Assembly: GCA_963758295.1 (NCBI GenBank)
Contig: CAVWUU010000001.1
Span: forward strand, 224,001-288,000
Direction: 5' to 3'
Length of the DNA stretch: 64,000 nucleotides
Origin: Candidatus Eremiobacteria bacterium
Lineage (GTDB): Bacteria > Vulcanimicrobiota > Vulcanimicrobiia > Vulcanimicrobiales > Vulcanimicrobiaceae
Shown here in pieces: positions 46,960 through 61,790 of this stretch. Positions within the stretch are counted from its first letter, which is position 1. Each line of letters opens with the position of its first letter. The notes under the pieces were generated by a model. The model ran no database searches, was not told the DNA's origin, and worked only from the letters and a program-made list of their open reading frames with translations. Made by a program: the position numbers and the translations under genes.

Positions 46960-46995
46960 GTAAAACACCGCCGGGCGTACCCGGCGGTGTTTTAC
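46960..46995. terminator. Bidirectional intrinsic terminator
   Basis: Perfect 16-bp stem GTAAAACACCGCCGGG-cgta-CCCGGCGGTGTTTTAC. Confidence 0.88.
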
Positions 46996-47124
46996 TTGCT
47001 GCACTCTACGAGGGGTCGTTGTGTTGACGATCGCGGTAAACCGCGAGGACAACTTTCGGGGGCGTTGTTGGTGGAGGACAACGTCGCCCCCGTTCATCCC
47101 GCTAGAACGGGATGAAACTTATGG

Positions 47125-47286
47125 TTAGTTCCAGCGCGTGATGATGCTGGACGTGCCGGCAACCTTCGGGCCCCAGCCGCTGAAAGAAGCGCTGCTCGGT
47201 GCGATTTGAATCAAGCGCGCGAGCGAAATCGTTGGTTCTGCTTCTTGCGTAGCGGCCTTGGGATCGGGCTGCGATGGGGTGTTCAC
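47125..47286 (-). CDS. Small peptide (53 aa) with FxGWGPK motif
   Basis: Manual translation MNTPSQPDPKAATQEAEPTISLARLIQIAPSSASFSGWGPKVAGTSSIITRWN; GTG start with GGAAGGA RBS. Confidence 0.6.
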   Translation of the reverse strand: MNTPSQPDPKAATQEAEPTISLARLIQIAPSSASFSGWGPKVAGTSSIITRWN

Positions 47287-47446
47287 GAACGTATCCTTCC
47301 GTTATTTCAAAGACGCGTTCTTGCGTCTCCGTGCGTTACTCTACACCGGGTATTACCGCCTACCTATGACCTTTGTTTCAGTTCGTTACGCTTTGACAAT
47401 CGACTTATCGAATAACATGTTGCAGTGTGACAGTTGTTGTTTAGTT

Positions 47447-47479
47447 CGTCTTTAAAAGCGTCATAAAAGCGGCATAAAA
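47447..47479 (-). promoter_or_regulatory. Three 11-bp tandem repeats, candidate winged-helix binding site
   Basis: Plus strand CGTCTTTAAAA GCGTCATAAAA GCGGCATAAAA. Confidence 0.5.
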
Positions 47480-47493
47480 TAGGGAGTTTTGGC

Positions 47494-49725
47494 CTATGTT
47501 CCCGCGTCGCCACCCGCGCGTATCACATATTTCACGATGAAACGATTCAGCGTTACATACGCAGCCGGCGTTCCGTAATTGAGGTAAAGATCCCCATTAC
47601 GCAGCCGCATATGAAATGCGGCTGCAACGTTGAGACCGGTTTGTGTGGAGAATCCGCCCAGCCCGTTAATATCTCTTAAGGAAAGTGTCAAATTGCTGTC
47701 GCTTCCGGTGTCGATGCCCAGCGACACACGTCGCAGCCACTGCGATTCGAGTATGCCGGTCGCGCGGTCGCGCTGATAGCTACCGTCGTATTCGAGGCCC
47801 AAAGAATAGCGGGAACCAAGCGGGCGCGACGTCGAGAGCGTGTACAAGTGCGTGATGGCGTTATTGAAAAGCCCCCACGTCGCGCTAAAATCAACCGGCC
47901 GCGGCGTGCCGTCGTGGTAGCCGACCGGCAGACCCATGAGGTTGAACGGAACGTTCGTGCCGTTGCGATAGCACGGAAATCCGGTAAAGAAGCTTTGGCC
48001 GAGCGTCGGTCCGGTGCAATCGGCGTTTGCGGGAACGTCGTACGCCCGCAAATAGCTTATCGTCGGCCCCGCGCCGTTGATGGAGAAGCCGTTTTTGAAC
48101 GTGGCGGAAAGAAAGGTCGCAAAATCCGACTCGTGAACGGCGCCGCTGCGATCCAAAAGCCGGTCGCCGGCGATATTCAGATCCCAGTTCTTGATCGTTT
48201 TCGTGCTGCCGACAAAGTTGAGATAGCCTTGGAGTCCGCGGATGTCCGAGTTGCTGGTGTATCCGTCAATGGGATTGTAATTGGGCGAGATGTCGACGTA
48301 GCCGGCGTTGATCTCCCAGTTCGGCCGATGGATGTCGACGAAGTCGTTCATGCTGTGCGCGGTCCCCTCGGGAATCCACGATCCGTGCTCGACCGAGCCG
48401 TTCAGTCCCCACACGAGCGCCGTGTGCAAATTCCGGCCTTTTACACCCGCTTCGAAGGTCTGGTCTTGACCTGAAACGCCGTGATTAGCAAGGACGCCGT
48501 CGGACCAATACTGGAGCGTCTGATCTTGCAGCGCGTGCTTGTACCCGTACACGATGTCATCGAACGTTTCGTCCGTTACGTCGTTGTAACCGCGGAACGT
48601 CATGAGGCCGAAGCTTTGCAGACCGGACGTTCCTTCGATCTTCATGCCTCGATCGAACGGTCCGACGCTGGGCGAGTAGAAAATTTCGTTTGCCGGCCCG
48701 ATGAAATTGGAGTATCCGTTCGGTACCGGCGTCAGGAAATTAGCGCCTTGCGAGAAGAACGGCCGGTACTCGGTGAGCTGCCTGCGGAACTCTTGCGGCG
48801 CAATAGTTTGCTGATCGATTTCGACGTTCGAGAAATCGGGATTCGCCGTACCGACGAAATTGATGGTCGACGTCAGCGGATAGCTTACGTCGATGCCGAG
48901 CGGTCGAACGCTTTGCTTCAAGAATGCGCCGTCCGACTGTTGGAACACGTCACGGTCGCCGCCGAGGCTCGCGAGCGCGTAGACCTCCGCGCGCGGCTTC
49001 GGACGAGATTGCGCCGATGCTTGAACCGCGAATCCCGTCGCTGCGGGCCAATAGCGAAGATCGTAAAATCCCGGCCAGTTGCCGGCGGCAACGTCTTGCA
49101 TCAACCCGTCGAACGCCCACGAGTAATGTTCGCCGATTGCCGAAACCTGCCGGAAGAATCCGATGCGCCACGTTTGCGGCGAACCGCCGTGAATGCGCAA
49201 GATGTTTAGCGGAATAATCATTACGGCGCGCCACGTGTTGCCTTCAACTTTCGCGGCGCTGTGCCATAACGGGCGATAGCGCGCGTTTTCACTAGCCTGC
49301 TCGTAACGGATTGCGCGCGGCGTCGTTTCGAAGAAATAGGCTTGCGACCCGGCGCCGCTTGTGTCCAAGCCGACTCCAACGAAGTCATCCGTGCCGAATC
49401 CGACGTCGTTCGTCGTCTGCGTCGCGACGATCGGCGTGCCATCTTGGAACGCCTCGAAACCAATGTAGAGATTCCGGTCGTCGTAGAGAACGTAGGCGGT
49501 AGTGGGAAGCGTCGCCGCGCTTCTCGTGGTCACGTTCTCCCAGGCTCCCTTCGTTGGAACGATACCGGCCTTCCACGCCGGATCCGTCATGGCTGGATCC
49601 AAGGGAAGCGGGTGGGGAGCTTTGGCGACCGGGAACGAAAACGTAGCGGGTACGGCAGCATTAACCGGACCGGCGAAACACCAGAGCCCGACCGCTGTAC
49701 AGAGAGATAAGATGGCGCGCTTCAT
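47494..49725 (-). CDS. CBM9-like domain plus DUF5916-type outer-membrane beta-barrel protein
   Basis: Signal peptide; YVLYDDRNLYIGF, DDFVGVGLDT, ANPDFSNVEID, EYRPFF; alternating beta-strand pattern at the C-terminus. Confidence 0.75.
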   Translation of the reverse strand: MKRAILSLCTAVGLWCFAGPVNAAVPATFSFPVAKAPHPLPLDPAMTDPAWKAGIVPTKGAWENVTTRSAATLPTTAYVLYDDRNLYIGFEAFQDGTPIVATQTTNDVGFGTDDFVGVGLDTSGAGSQAYFFETTPRAIRYEQASENARYRPLWHSAAKVEGNTWRAVMIIPLNILRIHGGSPQTWRIGFFRQVSAIGEHYSWAFDGLMQDVAAGNWPGFYDLRYWPAATGFAVQASAQSRPKPRAEVYALASLGGDRDVFQQSDGAFLKQSVRPLGIDVSYPLTSTINFVGTANPDFSNVEIDQQTIAPQEFRRQLTEYRPFFSQGANFLTPVPNGYSNFIGPANEIFYSPSVGPFDRGMKIEGTSGLQSFGLMTFRGYNDVTDETFDDIVYGYKHALQDQTLQYWSDGVLANHGVSGQDQTFEAGVKGRNLHTALVWGLNGSVEHGSWIPEGTAHSMNDFVDIHRPNWEINAGYVDISPNYNPIDGYTSNSDIRGLQGYLNFVGSTKTIKNWDLNIAGDRLLDRSGAVHESDFATFLSATFKNGFSINGAGPTISYLRAYDVPANADCTGPTLGQSFFTGFPCYRNGTNVPFNLMGLPVGYHDGTPRPVDFSATWGLFNNAITHLYTLSTSRPLGSRYSLGLEYDGSYQRDRATGILESQWLRRVSLGIDTGSDSNLTLSLRDINGLGGFSTQTGLNVAAAFHMRLRNGDLYLNYGTPAAYVTLNRFIVKYVIRAGGDAGT

Positions 49726-49805
49726 AGGCTAACCGAGCATCCCTCGGTTGGCGTCTGGGCGTCATCAGAATCGAATCAAAAGATTTTCGTCGAAGGACGG
49801 CAGCG

Positions 49806-51218
49806 ATGAGCCTCTATGCGTTCGGTCCGTTTCAGCTCGATGTCGAGCGTCTTCTTCTTTTGCACGCAGGAGAGCCGGTAGCGCTGGGTCCGAAGGTCGT
49901 CGAGACCCTCCTCGCGCTCATCGAACACCCCGGCGACGTCCTCGCGAAAAGCGCGCTTTTGGACCGCGTGTGGCCCGAAGGGTTCGTCGAGGAAGCGAAT
50001 CTCGCCCAAAATATCTACGTCCTGCGAAAGACACTGCGCTCCAGCTGGGACGTCGACGCAATCGAAACGGTCCCGCGGCGCGGCTACCGCTTTGTTGCAG
50101 CGGTTCAGCTGGTCGAGCATGTGATGCCTTCCACTCCGGAAGTCGTCGTTGACGTGCCGAAGCGGCGGCTGATCTCGCGCCGGCTCGTTGCTACCTGCGC
50201 GGCGGTGCTTTTCGCCTTAGGGCTTACGGTGATGGGCGCGAACGTGCTCGCGCGTCATTCGTCTCCGGCGACTCTGTCCGATGACGGGGCGCGCCTGTAC
50301 ACGATCGGGCGCTATTACTGGAATTCGCGTTCGCAGGACGGCGTCGCAAAAAGCATCGATTATTTTGCGCGCGTAATAGACACGGATCCCCGCAACGCGC
50401 GCGGATACGCAGCGCTCGCCGAAGCGAACGCAACGATGGCGGATTACCGCTATGGCACGCTTGGGCCGAAGGTGTATCTCTCACGTGCGCGGGCCTACGC
50501 GGAGAAGGCCCTCGCGCTCGATGCCAACTGCGCGGAAGCTTACGCGGCGTTAGGCCTCATCGATCTGAACTCGAAGCACTACGACGTTGCCGTCGACGAA
50601 CTCCGTCACGCCATTTCGATCGACGGTTCGTACGGACCGGCGCACGAGTGGTACGGCATCACGTTGCTCGGCCGCGGTCAGCTGCACGACGGCCTGCACC
50701 AGCTCGAAATTGCGGCCGATCTAGATCCGCTCTCGGTTTCCACGACGGCATGGCTTGGATCCGCAGCGTATCTGGACCGTCGCTTCAGCGAAGCGATCGC
50801 ATACTCGCGCCAGGTGCTCGATCTTGCGCCGAATCGCTCGGACGCCTATGCGATCATCGGCGAAGCGTACGAGGCGCAGGGAAACTACGAGGCAGCCATC
50901 GAGTCGTTCAAGCGCTATAAAGCGAGCGACCCGGAAGCGCGCGCGGAAGGCGCCGCATTACTGGCGCATGCCTATGCGTTGAACCACCATATGTCCGCGG
51001 CTCGGACCGAGCTTGCCTATGCGAAGGAACATTCGAACGATGTCGATCCCGGCGACTACGCGCTTGCGCTAGCGGTCGTCGGCGAGAAGAACGACGCCTA
51101 CAGCGTTCTGCGCCGCTTGCGTTCGCATAACATGTCGTGGATGGCCATCGAAAACGATCCCCGTTTCGACGCGTTGCGTTCCGACCGGAAGTTCCGCCAG
51201 ATCGCCGCTCCGGCATAA
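49806..51218 (+). CDS. CadC/ToxR-like winged-helix regulator with TM segment and TPR domain
   Basis: YAFGPFQLD, LLDRVWP..VEEANLAQNIYVLRK, IETVPRRGYRF; TM segment; repeated A..LDP TPR units. Confidence 0.88.
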   Translation: MSLYAFGPFQLDVERLLLLHAGEPVALGPKVVETLLALIEHPGDVLAKSALLDRVWPEGFVEEANLAQNIYVLRKTLRSSWDVDAIETVPRRGYRFVAAVQLVEHVMPSTPEVVVDVPKRRLISRRLVATCAAVLFALGLTVMGANVLARHSSPATLSDDGARLYTIGRYYWNSRSQDGVAKSIDYFARVIDTDPRNARGYAALAEANATMADYRYGTLGPKVYLSRARAYAEKALALDANCAEAYAALGLIDLNSKHYDVAVDELRHAISIDGSYGPAHEWYGITLLGRGQLHDGLHQLEIAADLDPLSVSTTAWLGSAAYLDRRFSEAIAYSRQVLDLAPNRSDAYAIIGEAYEAQGNYEAAIESFKRYKASDPEARAEGAALLAHAYALNHHMSAARTELAYAKEHSNDVDPGDYALALAVVGEKNDAYSVLRRLRSHNMSWMAIENDPRFDALRSDRKFRQIAAPA

Positions 51219-51671
51219 ATGGCGTATAGCTCGCTCTTCGAAGCGCTCGCGGTCCGGCCGCAGCTGGCGCGATCGCTTGCCGCGCACATGCGCGAATTGA
51301 GCGACGGCGGCTCGGTTCCCAAACGGACGAAAGAACTGATCGCGCTGATGGTCGGCTGGCTCAATGCGTGCGATTACTGCACCTGCGTCCACGAAGAGAT
51401 CGCGCGTCACTTGGGCATCGATACCGCGACGCTTGAAGGACTGAGCGACTTCGCGCGCAGCCCGCATTTCACCGATGCCGAACGGGCCGCGCTCGCGGCC
51501 ACCGTCGCCTTGACGCGCGAGCCGCGCGCGCTGCCGCCCGCCATTTGGGAGAGTCTGAGCGCGCAGTACGACGAAGGGCAGATCGCGGAAGTGCTCTCGG
51601 TAATCGGTTTCAGTAATTACGTGAGCCGTCTTAGCAACGCGTTAGGGATCGAAGCTACGCAACAGGTTTAA
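51219..51671 (+). CDS. AhpD/carboxymuconolactone decarboxylase-family protein
   Basis: KELIAL...NACDYCTCVH. Confidence 0.85.
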   Translation: MAYSSLFEALAVRPQLARSLAAHMRELSDGGSVPKRTKELIALMVGWLNACDYCTCVHEEIARHLGIDTATLEGLSDFARSPHFTDAERAALAATVALTREPRALPPAIWESLSAQYDEGQIAEVLSVIGFSNYVSRLSNALGIEATQQV

Positions 51672-53130
51672 ACGCGCGAGCCATCACTCGCTCCGCGGTG
51701 ATAAGGCGCGTGCCGCTCCAACGATCGTGCAGCATGATATGACGCATGATGGGGCTTAGCACGAGCAAAAACGGCCACAGGAGAAGCGCCAAAACGTAGC
51801 GCCACACGGTTCGCCAGACGCCGGGAGGGCGAAAATCCGTCGTTACAACGCGCAATCCCGCAATCATCATGCCGAAGCTTTGGCCGGCAACGGCTACGAG
51901 CACGGTCAGGTAGATGGCGGCAAACCAAAACGAGATCGAGCCGGCTTGTAAGACCGGAAGCACCGTGTCGACGGCCTTTGCGATCGGCGAGGAGTTTTGC
52001 GTGAGGTGCACGCCTTCCGGCGTGAGAGACAACCCGCCGAACGAAAGGAGTTTGGGGCCGGCATCGTTGCCTTCATCTGCCGGTGCCTGGACGTCGACGT
52101 GCACGCCGCCCTTCGAGTAAACCGTTTTGCTGCTTTTGGTGGCGGGCGCAGTCGTTCCCGGAGTTTGCACGTACGCGGCATCGTGGTTCGTGATTGCTCC
52201 GTACAGCGCGCCGACGATAATGAGGTCGATCGCCACAGCCGCAAACCGGCGCCACCAGCCGGCGCAATCGCCGCGTTGCACTTTTACGGCGCCCGGCGAA
52301 GGCAGCGCGGGCGGTTCGACCGCGGCTTCGCGTAAGAACCACTCTTCAAAGATTTGAAATTGTTGCGTTCGTTGGAACGCATCCATGTGCGCGATGCGTC
52401 GCGTGGCGTACGGCTCCGCGCCAAGCCACTCACCCCACTTCAACACGCTGTCGCGCGCGATCTCGCGTCCTTGCTCGGCAAATTGCTGCACGTTGACTTG
52501 ACGCCCAAAATGATGGAACGAAGAAACGGCGATCGCTCGTGCCGCCGCGTCGAGCGAACCGCAAACGAGCAGTCCGACTTTATCGCACGTGAATTCGCAG
52601 TTGCGGAGCCACGCGCCGAAGATTAGCGCGACGATCGGGTTTTCGTTGCCGTTGACGCTTAGCAGCGAAAGGTAGCGCGTATGTCCGGCGGCGATGTGGC
52701 CGAGCTGCCGTCCAACGATGAATGCCAGTTCGTCGTCCTCGAAGTGCTCGATCCAATGGCTAGAAAGCACGAGCGCGTATGGATCGCCGAAGCCAAGCGC
52801 GGCGACGGGAACGTTGTAATCTTCGCGCACGAAGATGAGCGGCATGGGAATCTCGAGGGCCGCGCACGCCCGCTTCACGATCGCGAAGACTCGCGGGTAC
52901 TGCGCCTCGTGAATCATGACGGAGGAGCCGATGAGGCGTCCCCGTGCGAGCGTCACGTAGATCATCGCGACGACGATGAAGAGTGCGACTTCCGATTCGC
53001 CGATTCGTTCGTGGATGAAGAACCCGATCAGCGCCGCTGCGGGAAACGCGAAGAGGAGCGTTAGAACGAAGGTTAGGCGCTCTCGCGGGTCGCGAAGTGA
53101 CGATGGTCCCGAGAATAACGGACTGGACAC
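51655..53130 (-). CDS. M48-peptidase-like plus RDD-domain membrane protein with degenerate Zn motif
   Basis: DELAFIVGRQLGHIAAGH, EFTCDKVG; RDD motifs WWRRFAAVAID, GQSFG, LHDRWSGT. Confidence 0.8.
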   Translation of the reverse strand: MSSPLFSGPSSLRDPRERLTFVLTLLFAFPAAALIGFFIHERIGESEVALFIVVAMIYVTLARGRLIGSSVMIHEAQYPRVFAIVKRACAALEIPMPLIFVREDYNVPVAALGFGDPYALVLSSHWIEHFEDDELAFIVGRQLGHIAAGHTRYLSLLSVNGNENPIVALIFGAWLRNCEFTCDKVGLLVCGSLDAAARAIAVSSFHHFGRQVNVQQFAEQGREIARDSVLKWGEWLGAEPYATRRIAHMDAFQRTQQFQIFEEWFLREAAVEPPALPSPGAVKVQRGDCAGWWRRFAAVAIDLIIVGALYGAITNHDAAYVQTPGTTAPATKSSKTVYSKGGVHVDVQAPADEGNDAGPKLLSFGGLSLTPEGVHLTQNSSPIAKAVDTVLPVLQAGSISFWFAAIYLTVLVAVAGQSFGMMIAGLRVVTTDFRPPGVWRTVWRYVLALLLWPFLLVLSPIMRHIMLHDRWSGTRLITAERVMARAFKPVA

Positions 53131-54344
53131 GAGGGCTTCTCGTCAATACGCACGGCCGTTTCCTCCTGGGCAGGCGCGAGCTTCGCGCCGCTTCCGCCAT
53201 TGCGCTTGACGATGTACATTTCGCGGTCCGCCGCTTGCAGCAGGGCGCGCGCGTTTTGGGCGGCGTTGGGATACGTTGCCACGCCGACGCTTGCGTTGAC
53301 GTAGATCCGCCGCTCGTCCACGATGAGGGGCTCGTCGAAGCTGCGCAGCAGCTTCCGCGCCGCATCGAGCGCGGCCGCCTCGGTATAAAGATCTTCAACC
53401 AGGACCACGAACTCGTCGCCGCCGATGCGGCCGACGGTGTCGGTTGCGCGGACGTTGCGGTTCAGGCGTTCGGCGACGCTTTCGAGGACTGCGTCGCCGA
53501 AAGCGTGGCCGTGCGCGTCGTTCAGGGCTTTGAAATCGTCGAGATCTAGGAACAGAACGGCGCACTTGCGTTCGATGCGCTGCGCTCGAACCAGCGCCTG
53601 TGAAAGCCGTTCCTGGATAGCCGCGCGGTTCGGTAACCCGGTAAGCGGGTCGTGCAAGGCCAGATCGGAAAGCTGCGCTTCCCGATCTTTCAGATCGCTG
53701 ATATCGATGATCGTGCCGATCCGCGCAAGGGCGATGCCGCGCTCATCGACGAGCGTACGAACGCGCTCGCGTACCGTTCGTACGCGGCTGTCTTCTCCGA
53801 GGATGCGATGATCGCAGACGTACTCATCGCCGCTTTGCGCCGCGAGCTCGTGGGCGATCCGCTCGCGCTCCTCGTCGTGATCGAAACTTCTAATATCGAA
53901 GGGCTGCGCGTGCTGATCGATGCCGAGCAGTGCCGCGAGGCCTTCCGATATCGCCACGGCGCCCGTGCGCAAATCTTCGTGCCATGTGCCCATTCCGGCA
54001 AATCGTTCGGCATGGCGGAGCGTTTCGGACTGGAGCGGAGAGTGTTGCTGGATTTCGACCGCCCGTCCCGCCACGCCGACCGTTAGCCCTCTCAAATCTT
54101 CGAGCGGCTGCAGCTCGAACCGGAACGTTCCGGAACCCACGGTTGCCTCGAAGGCGAGATGCTCGCCGTCCAAAGCCCAATGGTGTGCGACCGTTGCGAC
54201 ATTGAAAGGGTCGTCGTTTCCCCAGAGATCGCTCACGTGAAGAGCGGAGTCGATCCCGATTCCTGCAAGGCCGCGCAGCCGAGCCGTAAGCGACGTGACC
54301 TGCAGATTCCTATCGGTTGTCCAGACCATGGCCTGGTCGTGCAT
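53073..54344 (-). CDS. PAS-containing diguanylate cyclase
   Basis: HDPLTGLPNR, DLDDFKALND, RATD I-site, GGDEF. Confidence 0.92.
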   Translation of the reverse strand: MHDQAMVWTTDRNLQVTSLTARLRGLAGIGIDSALHVSDLWGNDDPFNVATVAHHWALDGEHLAFEATVGSGTFRFELQPLEDLRGLTVGVAGRAVEIQQHSPLQSETLRHAERFAGMGTWHEDLRTGAVAISEGLAALLGIDQHAQPFDIRSFDHDEERERIAHELAAQSGDEYVCDHRILGEDSRVRTVRERVRTLVDERGIALARIGTIIDISDLKDREAQLSDLALHDPLTGLPNRAAIQERLSQALVRAQRIERKCAVLFLDLDDFKALNDAHGHAFGDAVLESVAERLNRNVRATDTVGRIGGDEFVVLVEDLYTEAAALDAARKLLRSFDEPLIVDERRIYVNASVGVATYPNAAQNARALLQAADREMYIVKRNGGSGAKLAPAQEETAVRIDEKPSCPVRYSRDHRHFATRESA

Positions 54345-54390
54345 TCCGCAATCCTTTTTCGTAAGCGAATCTCTGGTGTGCTTATCCTAG

Positions 54391-54556
54391 CGAGACCGCA
54401 CCCCGTGGAGCATCCGTGGAAACCCCTGACCTTTGAACCATCACCGGCTTCGCGTACCCCTGGGGAGCTTGCTTGGAATGGGAAGCCGGGCAACCTCTTC
54501 TGGTGTGAAGTCTCGGGAACGCAGAAGGGGACGGTGCTCGCATCGTCCCCTTCGTT
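54391..54556 (+). ncRNA. Candidate structured non-coding RNA
   Basis: Nested pairings CGAGAC/GTCTCG, CGCACC/GGTGTG, CCGGCTTC/GAAGCCGG plus a 3' hairpin; G.U pairs favour the plus strand. Confidence 0.4.
54524..54553. terminator. Strong hairpin, probable terminator
   Basis: GAAGGGGACGGTGC-tc-GCATCGTCCCCTTC. Confidence 0.7.
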
Positions 54557-54574
54557 CAGTCGCGCGTTGTCTGC

Positions 54575-54886
54575 CTACTTACCAGAGGCATGTTCCTCCC
54601 ACCGCTGCTTCGCGCGCCTTCCGAACAGGCCAACGATGCGGCCGTTCAGGCGCTCCCGCGTCGCCGGAGACAATATTCTTGTGACGACGAGCAACATATA
54701 TAGTTGCACGAACGCATATGGCAAGTTAATTGCCGGTTCGCGTCGCGCGAGCACGAACCAGCTGAATACGAAAAGCACGATGCAGGCAGCGATGCTTATG
54801 AAGCGGCGATATCGCACCACTATGATGAGGCCGTTCGCGAGCACAAGCACCGCCGTCACATCGCGGACAAGTTCATGCAAAGACAT
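54575..54886 (-). CDS. Small membrane protein (about 3 TM, basic tail)
   Basis: Hydrophobic 103-aa ORF starting 5 nt after the stop of the Tat lipoprotein gene. Confidence 0.6.
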   Translation of the reverse strand: MSLHELVRDVTAVLVLANGLIIVVRYRRFISIAACIVLFVFSWFVLARREPAINLPYAFVQLYMLLVVTRILSPATRERLNGRIVGLFGRRAKQRWEEHASGK

Positions 54887-54891
54887 CCGGG

Positions 54892-55293
54892 CTAAGTGCC
54901 TTTCATGCACGTGACGTATAAGTAAACCATGTCAATGCCGGCGCCGATCCCTGCGGCCGCTAGCACGGCCGGCAAATCGATGGCCGACGCACATGCGATT
55001 AGCACGTCGGCGAATCCAGCGAGAGACACCGAGCCTGCGATGACGCCTCTCGCGGCAGCGATCAAGGCGGTACATGCTTGCTGCCCGCGTATGGACGCCG
55101 TTTGGAAAACCGCGTAGGCGTTTAATTTATAAAGCGCTTCGTCCAGGATAGAATCGGGCGTTATTCGCGGGGATGACACGAGCGATTGTGGTGCCGGGCC
55201 TCCGCAAGCCGCGAGCGCAAGTCCACTCAAGCCCCAGGCATTGTTCCGAAGAAACACGCGCCGGATCCCACAAAATCGTTCAAAGCAACGCAT
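54892..55293 (-). CDS. Tat-signal lipoprotein with hydrophobic Ala/Gly/Cys-rich C-terminus (start uncertain)
   Basis: RRVFLR...LALAAC (twin-Arg plus lipobox); the start may be TTG 55283 if one C is missing. Confidence 0.6.
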   Translation of the reverse strand: MRCFERFCGIRRVFLRNNAWGLSGLALAACGGPAPQSLVSSPRITPDSILDEALYKLNAYAVFQTASIRGQQACTALIAAARGVIAGSVSLAGFADVLIACASAIDLPAVLAAAGIGAGIDMVYLYVTCMKGT

Positions 55294-55543
55294 CCTCTCG
55301 TAGCAAAGCAGAACGACGATGAGCGCGCGCTTAATCAACCACGCATGTTACGCTTCGACGATCGCACCCACCGTCGAATGATCACCATACGAAGGTATGC
55401 TACAAGACGCCTTCTGTTGCTCGGCGATTAGGCTAAAAGTGAATGTGAGCCAATTTAAGATCTCAAAGGATACGCGGGTGCCTTCGGCGTGACGGCCGCC
55501 TACGCCTCACCGGATACACGCGAAAATTTTTCCGCGTACCCCC

Positions 55544-55587
55544 TTGACGCTGCGTACCACTGTGCTATTGTACTAGTGTACTAGTAC
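55544..55587 (+). promoter_or_regulatory. Sigma70 promoter with overlapping YtrA/GntR-type operator
   Basis: TTGACG-16-TATTGT with extended TG; perfect inverted repeat GTACTAGT-gt-ACTAGTAC (55570-55587). Confidence 0.8.
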
Positions 55588-55627
55588 GACATGAGACTGG
55601 TACGGCAACGAAAGAAAGAAGAACGCC

Positions 55628-55738
55628 ATGACCCGCTTCATCAACCGCCCCGAAGAAAATGAAGTCCGCGAAGCCCGCGTCCGCATCCCCTACCAGATGA
55701 GCGCCCCAATTTTCCAGGGCTGGGGACCGAAGTTCTAA
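55628..55738 (+). CDS. Small peptide (36 aa) with FxGWGPK motif, first cistron of the GntR-ABC operon
   Basis: Manual translation MTRFINRPEENEVREARVRIPYQMSAPIFQGWGPKF; purine-rich leader; host-like codon usage; stop 7 nt before gntR. Confidence 0.7.
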   Translation: MTRFINRPEENEVREARVRIPYQMSAPIFQGWGPKF

Positions 55739-55745
55739 GCCGCCA

Positions 55746-56144
55746 ATGCCCGTAGTACTGACGGTCGACCCCCGCAGCGGGGTGCCGATTTACCTCCAAG
55801 TGATCGATCAGATCAAACGCTCGGTGGCAATAGGCATCCTCATGGCGGGCGAGCAGCTCCCAACCGTCAAGCAGCTCGCGCTCGATCTAACGATCAACCC
55901 GAACACCGTCGCGAAAGCCTACCGAGAGCTGGAGCGCGATGGGGTTATAGAGACGGCAGCCGGCCGCGGTTCGTTCGTCCGCAGCAACGGCCACGTCGAT
56001 ACGACGAAGGCCGCCGCGAAAGACGTAGCTCGCGATTCGCTGGAAACCGCCGTGCGCGAAGCAAAGTCCATCGGCCTCAACGCCGACGAGATTCGATCCT
56101 TGATGAATGCTGCAATCGACCGGTGGTTCCAGGAGGGGCAATGA
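55746..56144 (+). CDS. GntR-family (YtrA-like) regulator
   Basis: PIYLQVIDQIK, LPTVKQLA..L.INPNTVAKAYRELE, GRGSFV; short C-terminal domain. Confidence 0.93.
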   Translation: MPVVLTVDPRSGVPIYLQVIDQIKRSVAIGILMAGEQLPTVKQLALDLTINPNTVAKAYRELERDGVIETAAGRGSFVRSNGHVDTTKAAAKDVARDSLETAVREAKSIGLNADEIRSLMNAAIDRWFQEGQ

Positions 56145-57051
56145 GCACGATCACGATTCAAAATTTGCGAAAAACCTATGGCAAGTACGTTGCCGTGGAC
56201 GATTTTTCGGTCACGATCCCGGAAGGCACCGTGTTCGGATTGCTTGGTCCCAACGGCGCCGGTAAAACGACTACCTTCAAGTGCATGCTCGGACTCGCTA
56301 ACCCCGACTCCGGCTCGGTACGCTACGACGGCAAGACGCTCGTTCCCGAAACGTTCGAGCGCATCGCGTACGTGCCGGAAAAAAGCGTGCTCTACGAATG
56401 GATGACGGTAGCCGAACACGTCGAGATGCAGCGGCGTTCGTACCGCAGCTTCTCCGTGAAGCAAGCACAAGATTTACTTGCGCAGTTCGGAATCGATCTG
56501 CGCAAGAAGACGCGCGCGCTCTCTAAAGGAATGCGCACCGCGACCCAAGTGGCGCTTGCAGTTTCGCGCCAAGCCGACATTTTGATCCTCGACGAGCCGA
56601 CGAGCGGGCTGGATCCGATCAACCAGCGCCACGTTTTGAACCTGATCATCAACGAAGCATCGCGCGGCGCAACGGTCATCTTCTCGTCGCATCAAATCGG
56701 CCAAGTCGAACGCGCTGCCGAAAACATCGCGGTTATCGATCGCGGACGCCTGGCGCTCGAGGGAACCATCGACGATCTCAAAGCGGATCGCAAGATCGTC
56801 AAGGGCATCTTCCCAAGCGAGACCTACGCACTGGACGGTATTTCGGCCGACACCCGAGTCGCGCGCGTGGATCGTAGCGGCCGGATCGTGCGCCTCTTGG
56901 TGAACGAAGGCGCCCGGATCTCGCTGCAAAGATCGAATCCCTCGGCGCCGGCGGCGTGCGCATTGTGGATTTGAATCTCGAAGACATTTTCTTATATGCA
57001 GTCGCTCCTTCGGAGCAGACGGCCGACGTCGTTGAGGAATCGCCTAAATGA
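56141..57051 (+). CDS. ABC transporter ATP-binding protein (YtrB-like), frameshifted near 56914
   Basis: GPNGAGKTT, LSKGM, LDEPTSGLD, SSH; adding one C restores ...LNLEDIFL...PK* with an ATGA overlap to the permease. Confidence 0.92.
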
Positions 57052-58070
57052 CCTATGTTGAATGGCTACGCGTACGCAACGTGCTGCGCGTGCTGGCCAT
57101 CGTCCTCGGTATCTTGATCGCGATCTCGCTCGTGTTGCGAATTTCGTTCAACCGGTACATCACCGATGACAACGCGTTCATCCAACACGTGACGATGGCG
57201 AAGGGTGCCAGAGTCGCGCATGAAGTGCTCCCGGGCGGGATCAATCGTACGCACATCGACGATCCGGGCGACAATACGCACATCATCGTGGACGATCTCG
57301 GCTATGGCGGCCGGCACATCGTAATTACCGAGCCGCGAAAGAACTCCACGCATCACGGCGATCACGTAACGATCGGCAGTGTGGAAGTCAAAGAAACCGA
57401 AAACGCCGACACGACTACGACGGTCATCGACACCAACAGTTCCGTGCCGTTCCTCTACTATATGATGATTGCCGATATCATGGCCTTCGTAATCGCAACC
57501 GTCTTAGGCGCACCCTTCGCCCGTGAAAACGACGGCCACCTGGAGTATGCGCTCACCAAACCGGTTTCACGCATAGGGTTTGCGTTCCAGACGATGGGCG
57601 TGGACATCGTAGGCATCGTCGCCGCATCCCTTATGACCATCGTCGCCCTCGTCATCTGCCAATCGATGTTCGAAGTTCCGCACTTTGACTTCAGCGGCGT
57701 GAATCTGCAGGCAATTCTAATCGGTATCGCGGCACCGCTTGCATGGTACGCCATGCTCAACGCCGCGAGCGCATCCTTGCGGCGGGGCTATGGTGCCGTG
57801 CTCGGATTCGCGTGGCCGGTGGCCATTCTAATAACGGTGTTTGGCACGATCTCTTGGGGCGACTCGCTGGTAGGAGGCGCCGTGCATAACATCTTCTGGA
57901 CGATCTCGCGTATCGATCCCCTTACGTACATTTCGACGCCATCGCAGCGCGAAGCAATGCATGGGACGCTCGTAGCGCCGTACTTCGGTATCCGTATCAC
58001 TCTCGAATGTTTGCTCTTCCTCGTTTATATGACGCTCGCGCTCTTTCAATGGCGCCGCGTGGAGGCGTAA
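57048..58070 (+). CDS. ABC-2-type permease with extracytoplasmic loop
   Basis: ENDGHLEYALTKPVSR motif; about 6 TM segments. Confidence 0.85.
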   Translation: MTYVEWLRVRNVLRVLAIVLGILIAISLVLRISFNRYITDDNAFIQHVTMAKGARVAHEVLPGGINRTHIDDPGDNTHIIVDDLGYGGRHIVITEPRKNSTHHGDHVTIGSVEVKETENADTTTTVIDTNSSVPFLYYMMIADIMAFVIATVLGAPFARENDGHLEYALTKPVSRIGFAFQTMGVDIVGIVAASLMTIVALVICQSMFEVPHFDFSGVNLQAILIGIAAPLAWYAMLNAASASLRRGYGAVLGFAWPVAILITVFGTISWGDSLVGGAVHNIFWTISRIDPLTYISTPSQREAMHGTLVAPYFGIRITLECLLFLVYMTLALFQWRRVEA

Positions 58071-58248: not shown

Positions 58249-59401
58249 TTAGACGACGAAGCCCGTCGCGATGGCGGGCTTCTCGAACCGGAAGCCGTCA
58301 GCTCTGACGGAGTAAAAGTAGACGTTCGGGATCGTCGCGTCGCCGGCGAAATTGAACGAGTACTGGCCGACGATCGTGTTGTAGGTTGCGGGGCGCTGAA
58401 GGTTGGAAAGCAGCGCCTGGCGGTTCACGGAGTTGAAGCGTTGAACGATCGACAATCACGATCTGTGCCGCCGCGTAACCGTACGCGGAGAACGCGGAGA
58501 TCGATCCCGCGAAGTGCTGGAAGTCGTTGAAGATCTGAAAGATCGACGGGACTTTGTCCAGCGGCGGGAACGACGACGCGACGAACGCGCCGTCTAGGGC
58601 TTTCGCGAACTTGTCGATTGTCGTTTGCGTGTAAAACCCGTCGCTCGCACCGAAGTCGCCTTTATAGCCGGCCGCGCGTAACGTCTCGGCGAACGGACCC
58701 AGGCGATCGGCTTTTCCGCATAAGAAAACGTAGGACGGCGCGCGTTTTAGGAGATCTTCCGAAACGCTCCCGGGATCGAAGCCGTTCGGTAAGGTCATTT
58801 GCGAAGCGTCGTGCTTATCGGACTTCGCTTGATCCACGTATGCGCGGGCCGTTTCCGACCCGTAATCTCCCTCGACGGTAACGGCGATTGTTGAAATCGT
58901 CTTGTGCCGCGGAAGCACGGTGCGCGCGAAAAGCATGCCTTCGGACGAGTCCTTCGTCGGCAGACGGAAGATGTTTCGAAATCCGCGCGATGTAATTGAA
59001 TCAGCAGTTACCGATGGGACAATCAGGGCGAAGTTTGCATTCGCATACTGCGGCAGCGCCTGCAACGTTACGTCGGCCGTAAGATTGCCGATCATCGCGA
59101 TGATGCTCGGATCTGCAGCCGCAATTGAAACGTTTGCGGTGGCGATCGCGCCGGAGTTTTGATCGTCGAAAGTACGAATGCCGAACGCGAGCTGCAGCCC
59201 GGAAGTGAAACGGTTCGTCTCGTCGATTGCCGCTTCGACGCCTTTTGCCACTTCGCGTCCGTAGTTCGCGAGCGGTCCCGACATGGGCACGCTTACGCCG
59301 ATCGTGACCTGCCGAAGCTGCGTGGAGGGATAGAACTGCGCTCGCGCGATAGCGGGCGTCAGTGCCGCCGCAGATCCCGCGAGAAACGAACGACGCCGCA
59401 T
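58249..59401 (-). CDS. Tat-exported LivJ-type ABC substrate-binding protein, frameshifted near 58455
   Basis: MRRRSFLAG, IGVSVPMSG, FDDQ, YGYAAAQI; the C-terminus TIVGQYSFNFAGD is in the adjacent frame. Confidence 0.85.
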
Positions 59402-60258
59402 CAGCGGACCAGAAAGCCGGCGATGGTTGCGGCTAAGAAGACGAGCGAAAACGTCATATTGCCGGTGAATATACGTTCGTTGAGGACGAAAAGGTTCTCC
59501 GAGAGCCCGAAGAGCCGGTCTTCGTAGACCGTCAGCGCGAGCGCGGCGGCGACCCCGGCATAATACGGCCACCCGGCTTGCGCTAAGATGCCTGCGGCCG
59601 CAAGAAAGAGGACCATCACGACATGCAGCACGATGGGAAGCCAGCGCCCCGAGCGTTCCCCGAAACGCGCGGGCAGCGAATTGATGCCTTCGGCTCTATC
59701 GACGGCTACGTCCATCAAAGCATAAATGACGTCGAATCCGGCAACCCAAACGGTCACGGCGCCGAAGAGCAAGAACGCGCTCGCGTTGACGGTGCCGGTT
59801 ATGCCGATGTATGCGCCGAGCGGCGCAAGGCCGTCGACAGCGCCCAGAACGAAATGGACGAGCCAGGTGAAGCGCTTGCAAAGCGGATAGATCAATACGC
59901 CGAGCGCTGCGACCGGCATAAGCTTTACGCAAAGCGGATTGAGCATCCACGCCGAGAGCAGCAGAAGCGCAAATCCCAGCGCGATCGCCCAAAGCATGAC
60001 GCCGGGCGAGAGCGCCCCGCTTGCGACCGCGCGACGTGCCGTGCGCGGATTCTTGGCGTCTATGTCGCGATCGAAGTACCGGTTCGCCGCCATCGCGGCC
60101 GTGCGTGCGCCAAAAACGGCGAGCGTGATCCAAACCACCGCCCAAAGCGACGGAATGCCGTGGGCTGCGAAAGCGGCACCAACGTAGGCGAAGGGCATTG
60201 CAAAGAGCGTGTGCTCGATGCGAATCTCTTTCAGAAAAACTTTGACGGTATCGGTCAT
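59401..60258 (-). CDS. UbiA-family polyprenyltransferase (MqnP-like)
   Basis: EHTLFAMPF, NRYFDRDIDAKNPRT, GFDVIYALMD. Confidence 0.9.
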   Translation of the reverse strand: MTDTVKVFLKEIRIEHTLFAMPFAYVGAAFAAHGIPSLWAVVWITLAVFGARTAAMAANRYFDRDIDAKNPRTARRAVASGALSPGVMLWAIALGFALLLLSAWMLNPLCVKLMPVAALGVLIYPLCKRFTWLVHFVLGAVDGLAPLGAYIGITGTVNASAFLLFGAVTVWVAGFDVIYALMDVAVDRAEGINSLPARFGERSGRWLPIVLHVVMVLFLAAAGILAQAGWPYYAGVAAALALTVYEDRLFGLSENLFVLNERIFTGNMTFSLVFLAATIAGFLVR

Positions 60259-61790
60259 TCTTTACTCGGGCCGCTTCGTGAACGCATGAGACGATCGTAA
60301 GCGGCGGGGCCTTGTCCCGACCACGCGTCTGCGCTAAGCGATTTAGCGATCTTGTCTAAACCGTATTCGCGCCAGCGCTCGCTTACGAGCGCGCGCGTTT
60401 TGCCGTTCATTTCGATGTCGGGCGGCCATTCGCGTTGATAGCCTTCTGCGGCACTCTTGCGGGTTGCGTCGATGCCGATCTTCGTTCCATAAGCCATGTT
60501 GTAAGAACCGTGATCGAGATCGTCGACCGGACCCGGCATCGTCACGACGTCGCGGTCGGGAGCAAGATTGTTCAGCACAAACCACGCGACGCTGCGGACG
60601 TCTTGAACGTCCACGTCCTCGTCGACGACCACGAGGACGCGCGTCAACATCATCATGTGGCCCAAGCCCCATAGCGCGTTCATCACTTTTTTTGCGTGAC
60701 CGGGGTATTGCTTTTTGATCGAGACGATGGCGAGATTGTGGAAGCCGCCTTCCACGGGAAGATTCATGTCGATGACTTCCGGAAGCACCATCTGCAGCAG
60801 CGGCAAGAAAAGCCGTTCGGTCGCCTTGCCGATCCAAGCGTCTTCCATCGGCGGCTTTCCGACCACCGTCGCTGCGTAAATCGGATCGCGCCGGTGTGTG
60901 ATGCACGTGACGTGAAACGTTGGATAGAGGTCGGCAAGACTGTAGACGCCGGTGTGGTCGCCGAACGGTCCTTCGGTACGCAGGTCTTTGTTGTCGACGT
61001 AGCCCTCGAGCACGAACTCCGCGCTCGCCGGGACGCGCAAATCGACGGTTTTAGCCTGGACCAATTCGACCGGCTTTCCGCGCAGCAATCCCGCGAACGC
61101 GAATTCGTCGAACACCGGCGGGAGCGGGGCCGTTGCGGCGTACGTAATCGCCGGATCGCTTCCGATCGCGACTGCAACGGGAATCTTGTCGCCCCACGCG
61201 TCGGCGTGCGCGCGTCCTTGTTTGTGCCGTTGCCAATGCATGCCGGTTTCTCGCGCATTGTACACCTGCATCCGGTACATGCCGACGTTTGGACGGTTCG
61301 TTCTTGGATCTTTGGTAATCACAAGCGGCAGCGTAATGAACGGGCCGCCGTCCATTGGCCACGTCGTCAACACCGGCAACTTCGTCAAGTCCGGATTTCG
61401 GATTACCACTTCTTGACACCGGGCATCCCGCACGATCTTCGGAACCGCATTTAAGAGCGGCGCGAATTGCTTGAGCGCGCCCAGTTTTTCACCGAGCGAC
61501 GGGCCGGGCGGCGTAATTTCCAGCATGCGGCGCAGACGCGCAGCAACTTCGTCAAGCGAGCGCGCATCGAACGCCATGGCCATGCGGCGCTGCGAGCCGA
61601 ACTGATTCGTGAGAACGGCAAAACGGCTGCCCTTTACCTTCGTGAAAAGCAGTGCCGGACCGCCGGCTTTTACCACTCGGTCGGTAATTTCAGCGATCTC
61701 GAGATACGGATCGACGGCGGCACCGATAACGTGCAGCTCGCCGGCTTTGCGCAACGCTTCAACATACGAGCGCAACGAATCAAACGGCAT
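60255..61790 (-). CDS. UbiD-family menaquinone biosynthesis decarboxylase (MqnL-like)
   Basis: EIAEITDRV, NVGMYRMQ, EGPFGDHTG, GKPPMED, KIGIDAT. Confidence 0.92.
   Translation of the reverse strand: MPFDSLRSYVEALRKAGELHVIGAAVDPYLEIAEITDRVVKAGGPALLFTKVKGSRFAVLTNQFGSQRRMAMAFDARSLDEVAARLRRMLEITPPGPSLGEKLGALKQFAPLLNAVPKIVRDARCQEVVIRNPDLTKLPVLTTWPMDGGPFITLPLVITKDPRTNRPNVGMYRMQVYNARETGMHWQRHKQGRAHADAWGDKIPVAVAIGSDPAITYAATAPLPPVFDEFAFAGLLRGKPVELVQAKTVDLRVPASAEFVLEGYVDNKDLRTEGPFGDHTGVYSLADLYPTFHVTCITHRRDPIYAATVVGKPPMEDAWIGKATERLFLPLLQMVLPEVIDMNLPVEGGFHNLAIVSIKKQYPGHAKKVMNALWGLGHMMMLTRVLVVVDEDVDVQDVRSVAWFVLNNLAPDRDVVTMPGPVDDLDHGSYNMAYGTKIGIDATRKSAAEGYQREWPPDIEMNGKTRALVSERWREYGLDKIAKSLSADAWSGQGPAAYDRLMRSRSGPSKE

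Follow-up and report, generated by a model that had tools for sequence, protein, structure and literature searches.

The phenol-soluble modulins (PSMs) of Staphylococcus aureus reportedly interfere with a repressor of the GntR type and in this way induce their own exporter (PMC5080381). In the ytrGABCDEF operon of Bacillus subtilis, a small open reading frame (ORF), ytrG, is placed just ahead of ytrA and is followed by ABC transporter genes, and a link of the operon to envelope stress is described (PMC12772383). In the MbrR-MbrAB system of streptococci, the ABC ATPase reportedly sequesters its YtrA-like repressor while transport proceeds (bioRxiv 10.64898/2026.02.18.706565). RRNPP peptide signalling, with the pairs Rgg/SHP, ComR/XIP and PlcR/PapR, is the fourth described type that is considered here (PMC7564271). 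We compared with these systems two short ORFs, PEP-A and PEP-B, from a stretch of 64,000 nucleotides (nt) of a Candidatus Eremiobacteria genome (GenBank assembly GCA_963758295.1, contig CAVWUU010000001.1, positions 224,001 to 288,000), which is called the window below. PEP-A and PEP-B are paralogues of a real, clade-specific and previously undescribed family of micro-proteins of about 35-55 amino acids (aa), which is confined to a single class of the phylum Eremiobacterota, and the peptides are probably secreted or regulatory, to judge from their gene neighbourhoods. The system resembles the known pairs of peptide, pump and repressor and of peptide and tetratricopeptide-repeat (TPR) regulator. 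It is a member of none of them, because the curated cut-offs were not reached, the peptide is predicted to be neither helical nor transmembrane, and the candidate receptor is membrane-bound with an outward TPR domain.

The two ORFs are located as follows.
47125..47286, minus strand: PEP-A, a micro-protein of 53 aa with a GTG start, matched in a six-frame search with a hidden Markov model (HMM) at E = 6.5e-17
55628..55738, plus strand: PEP-B, a micro-protein of 36 aa with an ATG start, the first cistron of a GntR-ABC-permease operon

The translation of PEP-A contains SSASFSGWGPKV and has the C-terminus ...IITRWN, i.e. an F-S-G-W-G-P-K-V motif is followed by a 12-residue tail with a W-N end; orthologues with a PEP-A-like tail were seen in related genomes. 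PEP-B ends in MSAPIFQGWGPKF, i.e. F-Q-G-W-G-P-K-F-stop. The codons of the shared motif differ in one third position (GGC TGG GGC CCG AAG versus GGC TGG GGA CCG AAG). A Shine-Dalgarno-like run, GGAAGGA, is located 7 nt upstream of the GTG of PEP-A, and no such run was seen before PEP-B in the window. Both small ORFs with F-x-G-W-G-P-K, which had been proposed as a candidate new family in the original prediction, were found again with the same coordinates, strands and codons, and a domain scan of the window proteins confirmed the gene neighbours that had been named for them.

Matches of five residues between six-frame ORFs are generally common, and the similarity could on that ground be a coincidence between two non-functional ORFs. 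In six frames of the 3.03-Mb assembly (6,060,880 positions) GWGPK was present twice, once in PEP-A and once in PEP-B and both times as F.GWGPK, whereas the amino-acid composition gave an expectation of 0.49 for GWGPK and 0.016 for F.GWGPK (Poisson P(>=2) = 1.3e-4). We then used the back-translated motif TTYNNNGGNTGGGGNCCNAAR as a search pattern and the reversed pattern as a control. Of 41 related genomes, 25 contained the pattern, with 44 matches in total versus 1 for the control. Together with the phylum census and the dN/dS values given below, with purifying selection solely in the motif frame, this ruled out chance similarity, to which we ascribe a practically negligible probability.

In a sample of the phylum 214 of 401 genomes were matched, with approx. 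294 matches to the pattern versus approx. 10 to the control, as counted by us from the table. Families and genera within the sampled phylum genomes are labelled f1, f2, f3 and g1, g4 and so on, loci L and genomes G. The matched genomes were 193 of 296 in family f1, 18 of 30 in f3 and none of 5 in f2, and the other 18 families together contributed 2 of 69. PEP-A and PEP-B matches were paired on a single contig, 2.5-10 kb apart, in 13 genomes. The tallies contain genomes flagged as unpublished, two of them, G004 (L018) and G024 (L025), among these 13, and no conclusion rests on these alone.

In 41 of 42 tabulated matches the motif was inside a short open frame; in the exception, L041, the stop-to-stop frame spans 207 codons, yet the chosen start gives a peptide of 42 aa. 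A start codon was present 24-48 codons ahead of the motif F in every tabulated case (n = 42), and most tabulated loci had a Shine-Dalgarno-like AGGA, GGAG or AAGG run within 18 nt before the start. The third codon positions of the motif varied freely (GGC/GGA/GGT, CCG/CCC/CCA/CCT, AAG/AAA). The dN/dS values were as follows.
PEP-B, genus g1: 0.16 (10 pairs)
PEP-B, genus g32: 0.17 (110 pairs)
PEP-B, genus g32, last 26 codons: 0.10 (207 pairs)
Same DNA, two shifted frames: 2.3 and 2.8 (137 and 60 pairs)
PEP-A, distant and partly saturated pairs: 0.5-0.6 (7 pairs)
We concluded that the peptide genes are protein-coding and under purifying selection in the frame of the motif. Conservation at the protein level, which had been suggested from the codon difference between the two ORFs, was thus borne out by the PEP-B values of 0.10-0.17 versus 2.3-2.8 in the shifted frames and by the synonymous variation.

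A profile search of 5.8 billion clustered proteins returned 187 small homologues at E <= 0.01, and every name given to them was 'hypothetical protein'. Their named sources were metagenome-assembled genomes (MAGs) of Candidatus Eremiobacteraeota, Eremiobacteraceae, Baltobacteraceae and Ca. Tumulicola. An HMM search without filters, run against 1.84 billion representatives, gave 88 matches at E <= 0.001. Three of the HMM matches (P0158, P0160 and P0161) were dropped after inspection as low-complexity repeats, and P0166 and P0187 share the multi-stretch pattern of these repeat-rich sequences. Among curated families the peptides had no match at E <= 1 in NCBIfam and none at E <= 10 in Pfam. GWGPK was not found in the literature searched, and GWGPR, FQGWGP, FSGWGP and FPGWGP were absent from it in any relevant sense. 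The claim that no family with this motif has been described therefore stood, as neither a library model nor a report in the searched literature was found. That the peptides are unannotated was right in so far as they have no curated family, and wrong in so far as several public MAG records label homologues as 'hypothetical protein'.

Most loci were collected via the motif itself, and its invariance in the alignments is partly by construction. As an independent check, orthologous operons were gathered via the permease of the PEP-B operon instead of the motif. In these operons K was replaced by R in L084-L097 and L101 and by S in L098, and P was replaced by V in L107. From these data the real motif is read as F-x-G-W-G-P-[K/R]-hydrophobic, placed C-terminally with a short strand-like segment before it. 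Of the motif as originally proposed, the core F-x-G-W-G-P was retained; the terminal Lys is often Arg and is followed by a hydrophobic residue. Conservation was strongest at the motif end, and the N-terminus varied more. The peptides are Pro-rich, and PEP-B is without a hydrophobic stretch. An AF2 prediction of PEP-A from 29 sequences had a pLDDT of 59.6 and a pTM of 0.12 and contained no secondary structure; this points, as weak evidence from shallow alignments, to a disordered peptide and not to a folded mini-domain.

PEP-B is followed on the same strand by the genes of a pump operon. Together with the upstream elements they are:
55544..55587, plus strand: TTGACG-16 nt-TATTGT, which resembles a promoter on visual inspection and overlaps GTACTAGTGTACTAGTAC
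55570-55587, plus strand: tandem palindrome GTACTAGTGTACTAGTAC, a putative GntR operator as judged from its sequence
55746..56144, plus strand: YtrA-type repressor of the GntR family, 132 aa (Pfam GntR, 1.2e-14)
56123..56974, plus strand: ABC transporter ATPase, 283 aa (Pfam ABC_tran, 4.3e-28)
57048..58070, plus strand: clade-specific membrane permease, 340 aa, with an N-terminal transmembrane (TM) helix, a loop of approx. 100 aa and more TM helices

The PEP-B form of the peptide has 34-43 aa and stops one hydrophobic residue past the K/R. In 49 distinct peptide/GntR pairs the spacing between the two genes was 3-33 nt, mostly 6-19 nt, and the GntR proteins of these pairs had 129-137 aa and a near-invariant N-terminus. 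In the window the stop of PEP-B is 7 nt ahead of the GntR ATG, and the ATPase ORF as listed begins 22 nt within the 3' end of the GntR gene (56123-56144). Given this overlap, PEP-B, GntR and ATPase may all be translationally coupled. The palindrome GTACTAGTGTACTAGTAC is likely the operator of the YtrA-type repressor, through which the operon would be repressed. Only one further copy of the exact operator 10-mer was present in the genome, at C4:426059 in a region without long ORFs; it was rejected as a regulon member and taken as rRNA. GTAC boxes were also found ahead of PEP-B in other loci and genera.

Compared with the NCBIfam models, the GntR protein matched the Rv1152 family (1.6e-20) and PmtR (5.7e-18), and the ATPase matched DrrA (1.1e-47) and PmtA (6.7e-39), all of them under the curated cut-offs. 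The permease matched no Pfam or NCBIfam family, and sequences in the PDB were matched only at chance level (E 0.4-0.6). It was found in 234 of 296 genomes of f1, 28 of 30 of f3 and 1 of 5 of f2, and in none of 69 of all other families; the permease family thus shares the clade distribution of the peptide family. On the opposite strand, convergent with the pump operon, genes for a Peripla_BP_6 binding protein, a UbiA prenyltransferase and a UbiD decarboxylase (58298-61790, minus strand) are conserved across f1, which is probably plain synteny.

This arrangement is similar to the PSM/PmtR-PmtABCD system in that small leaderless peptides occur with a YtrA-type GntR encoded together with an ABC-2-type exporter, and peptide-dependent derepression could by analogy be the common logic. 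The Pmt repressor reportedly controls only its own exporter operon, and the putative operator is here confined to its own promoter. The GntR and the ATPase gave partial best matches to the PmtR and PmtA models; their scores, however, were 65.1 bits versus a cut-off of 200 and 133.8 bits versus 350. PSMs are amphipathic alpha-helices, whereas the peptides here are rich in Pro and predicted to be unstructured. Furthermore, one peptide is here the first cistron of the pump operon itself, and the organism is a diderm. With ytr the locus shares a small ORF immediately upstream of a ytrA-type gene in the same operon, at the 3-33 nt spacing of the 49 pairs. YtrG is however described as a small transmembrane protein (PMC12772383), whereas PEP-B lacks any hydrophobic segment, and its motif recurs in paralogues elsewhere in the genome. 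No sequence relation of PEP-B to YtrG was found in the Pfam and NCBIfam scans. With MbrR-MbrAB the locus has in common a YtrA-family repressor and a cognate pump, and by analogy flux through the pump could relieve repression without a ligand-binding domain. MbrR-MbrAB differs in that it reportedly senses foreign bacteriocins and that its operon is not headed by a peptide gene of its own.

PEP-A is located on the minus strand, 8.3 kb from PEP-B, and the elements of its locus are:
46965..46978, minus strand: terminator-like hairpin with a T run, approx. 150 nt past the PEP-A stop
47494..49725, minus strand: exported protein of 743 aa that has a signal peptide and matches DUF5916 weakly, between regulator and PEP-A
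49806..51218, plus strand: membrane-bound one-component regulator of 470 aa, with a winged helix-turn-helix (wHTH) at residues 22-96, one TM helix at approx. 127-145 and then TPR

The PEP-A form of the peptide has 51-59 aa and ends in the tail x-G-x(3-5)-h-h-[K/T]-x-[W/F/L]-N-stop. In the window PEP-A is the last gene of its unit and is followed by the terminator-like hairpin and a convergent aldo-keto reductase gene. Two more hairpin-forming stretches (47093-47116 and 47040-47075) were seen between the PEP-A stop and the T-tailed hairpin.

The regulator combines a Trans_reg_C domain (6e-15) with TPR repeats, and a single hydrophobic helix separates the two. Of 13 orthologous ORFs, 11 had 2-5 K/R before the TM helix and 0-2 after it; the other two ORFs were cut. 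Because of this positive-inside bias of the preceding TM helix, the TPR domain faces the periplasm. The TPR fold typically binds extended peptides. The phylum has been reported as diderm (bioRxiv 10.1101/534180).

The regulator gene was located 0.35-4.1 kb from PEP-A in 14 of 15 genomes examined; for the fifteenth, G004, only a 3-kb locus was available, which is too short to judge the linkage. In g8, g20 and g39 the regulator is directly divergent from PEP-A, and in g1, g4, g6 and g17 the gene of the 743-aa exported protein, probably an outer-membrane barrel, intervenes. In genus g32 the regulator gene was less than 0.5 kb upstream of PEP-B and in the same direction in 17 of 18 GntR-type loci of L064-L083, from which L069 and L083 were excluded because they are not GntR-type. 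Of the 51 GntR-type loci in total, by our count, 21 had the regulator gene at less than 0.5 kb ahead of PEP-B and 33 had it within 8.5 kb, and several loci without a regulator in reach have short flanks. The adjacency of peptide and regulator thus survives three different gene arrangements.

The barrel gene was present in the examined PEP-A loci of g1, g4, g6 and g17 and in L042 (g10), which has a degenerate PEP-A. An obligate partnership of the barrel protein with PEP-A was rejected on the directly divergent arrangement of g8, g20 and g39, in which no barrel gene lies between; the constant neighbour of PEP-A is the wHTH-TM-TPR regulator and not the barrel protein. The shortened PEP-A-like ORF of L042 (approx. 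1934, minus strand) ends in F-G-G-W-G-P-S-R-W-N at 162 nt from the barrel match, and L031 contains an extra ORF with F-Q-G-W-G-P-R-L-G (approx. 1970, minus strand). Both may be decaying or further paralogues. Between the regulator and PEP-B the window contains genes for a CMD-family protein (51219-51671, plus strand), an M48 peptidase-RDD fusion (51655-53130, minus strand) and a GGDEF cyclase (53073-54344, minus strand); these are in the same place in several other genera and not there in g32.

The RRNPP systems are similar in that a small ORF adjoins a DNA-binding TPR regulator, the active part is at the peptide C-terminus and small peptides are exported by an ABC pump, a likeness that is by analogy. 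PptAB reportedly exports small peptide pheromones. The RRNPP receptor is cytoplasmic and consists of XRE-HTH and TPR, whereas here winged helix, TM helix and extracytoplasmic TPR follow each other and no re-import would be needed. The organism also is not of the Bacillota, and the motif is invariant and not pherotype-variable.

The gene neighbourhoods also bear on a proposal contained in the original prediction, that the peptides are precursors of the leader/core type, i.e. of ribosomally synthesized and post-translationally modified peptides (RiPPs). An enzyme with its gene at another place would then cross-link Trp and Lys or modify them in some other way, and the product would be exported by the ABC pump. 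Trp-Lys cross-linked peptides exist, and streptide, tryglysin and darobactin are examples. The small size, a conserved C-terminal W-x-x-K and the adjoining ABC exporter agree with such a proposal. No radical-SAM, cyclase, YcaO or lanthionine-type family was however found among the conserved neighbours scanned, and in g32 the regulator gene ends approx. 0.2 kb before the PEP-B motif, which leaves no space for another gene. Lys and Pro are not invariant either, as seen in the replacements above, in the PEP-A of g39 and in a GWGVRI peptide of f3 (see below), and the conserved part is the C-terminal end and not a leader. The proposal was not upheld, and we consider RiPP precursors very unlikely.

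Up to three or four paralogues were found per genome, and this genome contains three. The third copy is outside the window (C1, approx. 681790-681918, plus strand), has 45 aa and ends in F-D-G-W-G-P-R-L. It is placed 14 nt ahead of a gene starting with a TM helix, as do the DUF4097 genes in L046 and L050, and its unit is divergent from a unit of ECF sigma factor, anti-sigma factor, response regulator and kinase. In such loci peptides are located -1 to 43 nt ahead of a membrane protein, which is a DUF4097 'toastrack' protein where scanned (L046), and the unit is again divergent from ECF sigma/anti-sigma/response-regulator/kinase genes (L046, L050, L069). In L054 the peptide is 5 nt ahead of the ECF sigma gene. 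In family f3 one peptide stands alone, ...RGPDTSIF.GWGPKL, and another has the end F-G-G-W-G-V-R-I-stop and is located 26-69 nt ahead of a metallophosphoesterase with a signal peptide (L055 914, L056 8575, L057 11278, L059 8643). The gene order in f3 is GWGVRI peptide, phosphoesterase and then the stand-alone GWGPKL peptide.

The position of these paralogues raises the question whether the operon-heading forms are cis-acting leader peptides. The nascent motif end would then act in the ribosome and tune the translation of the downstream regulator or membrane protein, by termination-reinitiation or by occlusion of a start codon 3-33 nt away. Like the ribosome-arrest and leader peptides TnaC, SecM and the Erm leaders, they are short ORFs with a conserved C-terminal end right upstream of a regulated gene. 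The conserved part is the last 8 residues right before the stop, and dN/dS was 0.10 in the last 26 codons versus 0.17 over the whole. One cassette is placed ahead of at least three unrelated genes at -1 to 33 nt, in addition to the phosphoesterase at 26-69 nt, and in our reading of the window no separate Shine-Dalgarno sequence precedes the GntR start. If a portable and clade-specific element had the ribosome as its partner, its invariance would also be explained. The PEP-B, ECF and DUF4097 forms are indeed directly upstream of a gene, but PEP-A and the f3 stand-alone form are not; a terminator or a convergent gene is found there instead. PEP-A also has its further conserved 12-residue tail, the dN/dS is low upstream of the motif too, and there is no room for alternative mRNA structures. 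In comparison with TnaC, SecM and the Erm leaders there is no sequence likeness and no attenuator structure, and stand-alone and fused members exist. We know of no ribosome-arrest motif that matches the motif of the peptides. A leader function is on balance unlikely.

The fused members were 157-161 aa long and consist of the peptide module, a hydrophobic helix of 12-15 residues, an A-x-A-like site 20-24 residues past the K and a TonB_C domain in which two Cys are invariant. Two examples are:
L043, 9570-10052, minus strand: fused form
L048, 9872-10351, plus strand: fused form
P0155, P0171, P0179, P0183 and P0205 are further examples. The structure prediction had low confidence for residues 1-38, a helix at 39-50 and a well predicted TonB_C fold. 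The Tat consensus is S/T-R-R-x-F-L-K before the h-region; such an n-region motif was considered for the fused form and rejected, as the same position contains no RR. A lipobox or a type IV prepilin-like site was rejected on the alignment. The fused form came from the HMM search, and a separate search aimed at longer fused forms found none among 8000 scored candidates, which is weak evidence. A second type of TPR neighbour is seen in L041, L047 and L048, where family members adjoin large cytoplasmic TPR proteins, namely BTAD- or HTH-STAND-TPR regulators.

In the fused form the motif abuts the hydrophobic helix on its N-terminal basic side, which indicates a cytoplasmic placement. The peptides could be cytoplasmic regulatory micro-proteins, in which the motif is a short linear motif docking on one common partner in the cytoplasm or at the inner membrane face. 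Candidate partners are the ABC ATPase or permease, the YtrA-type repressor, and a protease or other quality-control factor, and the free peptides would modulate the partner upon induction of envelope-stress-type operons. Several paralogues per genome, as first cistrons of diverse regulatory and envelope modules (GntR-ABC, ECF sigma, DUF4097), are in line with this, as is one conserved partner with a near-invariant motif. The tight coupling to GntR at 3-33 nt is typical of proteins made in a fixed ratio, and PSMs reportedly bind PmtR (PMC5080381). Against a cytoplasmic role, the fused form is rare (of 151 genomes in the family, 3 had it at full length), and the adjacency to a regulator with a solely extracytoplasmic sensor would be explained only as transcriptional control. 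We regard cytoplasmic micro-proteins as possible, though doubtful. The alternative named in the original prediction, small regulators that share a binding partner, is likewise a possible reading.

The reading that we favour, tentatively and at less than even chance, is that the ABC pump exports unprocessed peptides, which the TPR domain then senses in the periplasm. Export with TPR sensing is the simplest joint model because it takes together the invariant motif, the linkage to a clade-specific exporter and the linkage to a regulator with periplasmic TPR. From the observed linkage and topology we infer the following steps. The peptides would be made without a signal peptide and exported unprocessed by the ABC ATPase and the clade-specific permease encoded behind PEP-B. 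The YtrA-type GntR, with its operator within the PEP-B promoter, would set the level of the pump, and its repression would be relieved as peptide or transport flux rises, as for PmtR and PSMs or MbrR and MbrAB. The periplasmic TPR domain of the ToxR-like wHTH-TM-TPR regulator would bind the conserved C-terminal motif, and the regulator would then control the adjacent peptide genes, i.e. PEP-A and in many genera also PEP-B. Of the functions listed in the original prediction, the exported signal is our best guess, as it fits the conserved links to the ABC exporter operon and to the extracytoplasmic-TPR regulator.

Several observations weigh against export and TPR sensing. The motif is near-invariant across two families, while signalling peptides usually diversify, and such invariance fits a universal partner (transport machinery, ribosome, membrane face) better than a co-evolving receptor. 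In genus g39 the GntR-ABC-permease operon is kept without PEP-B, with a gap of only approx. 70-200 nt ahead of the GntR start (two loci read), and PEP-A is retained, with R in place of K, in all 5 genomes examined. The stand-alone peptides of f3 have no regulator or pump close by, and paralogues also head the ECF sigma, DUF4097 and secreted phosphoesterase operons, which contain neither an exporter nor a TPR sensor. The module of the fused form stands ahead of a signal-like or anchor helix and would stay cytoplasmic. Finally, much of the synteny evidence comes from one family, the members of which are kin, and the counts are not independent.

The Eremiobacterota (WPS-2), which abound in poor soils, have hardly been cultured, and to our knowledge nothing is known of their signalling. 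Here synteny links a clade-wide micro-protein family with a near-invariant motif of eight residues, often missed by gene callers, both with a membrane-bound TPR regulator and with a YtrA-type repressor-pump operon. The family gives a ligand candidate for two poorly understood regulator classes, the YtrA-type repressors, which lack a ligand domain, and the ToxR-like TPR regulators, for most of which no signal is known. Should the family act in cis, it would represent a leader cassette of a new and portable kind. It is conceivable, though we would not expect it, that leaderless peptides, a self-regulated ABC-2 exporter and a direct read-out by the TPR of a ToxR-like membrane factor form a diderm circuit of new design. 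By such a circuit the cell would monitor its own export, envelope state or neighbours without a kinase and without re-import, and several envelope-stress regulons would be joined to this one channel through the paralogues that head ECF-sigma and toastrack operons. The family is in this respect a candidate case of peptide signalling in a diderm outside the Proteobacteria.

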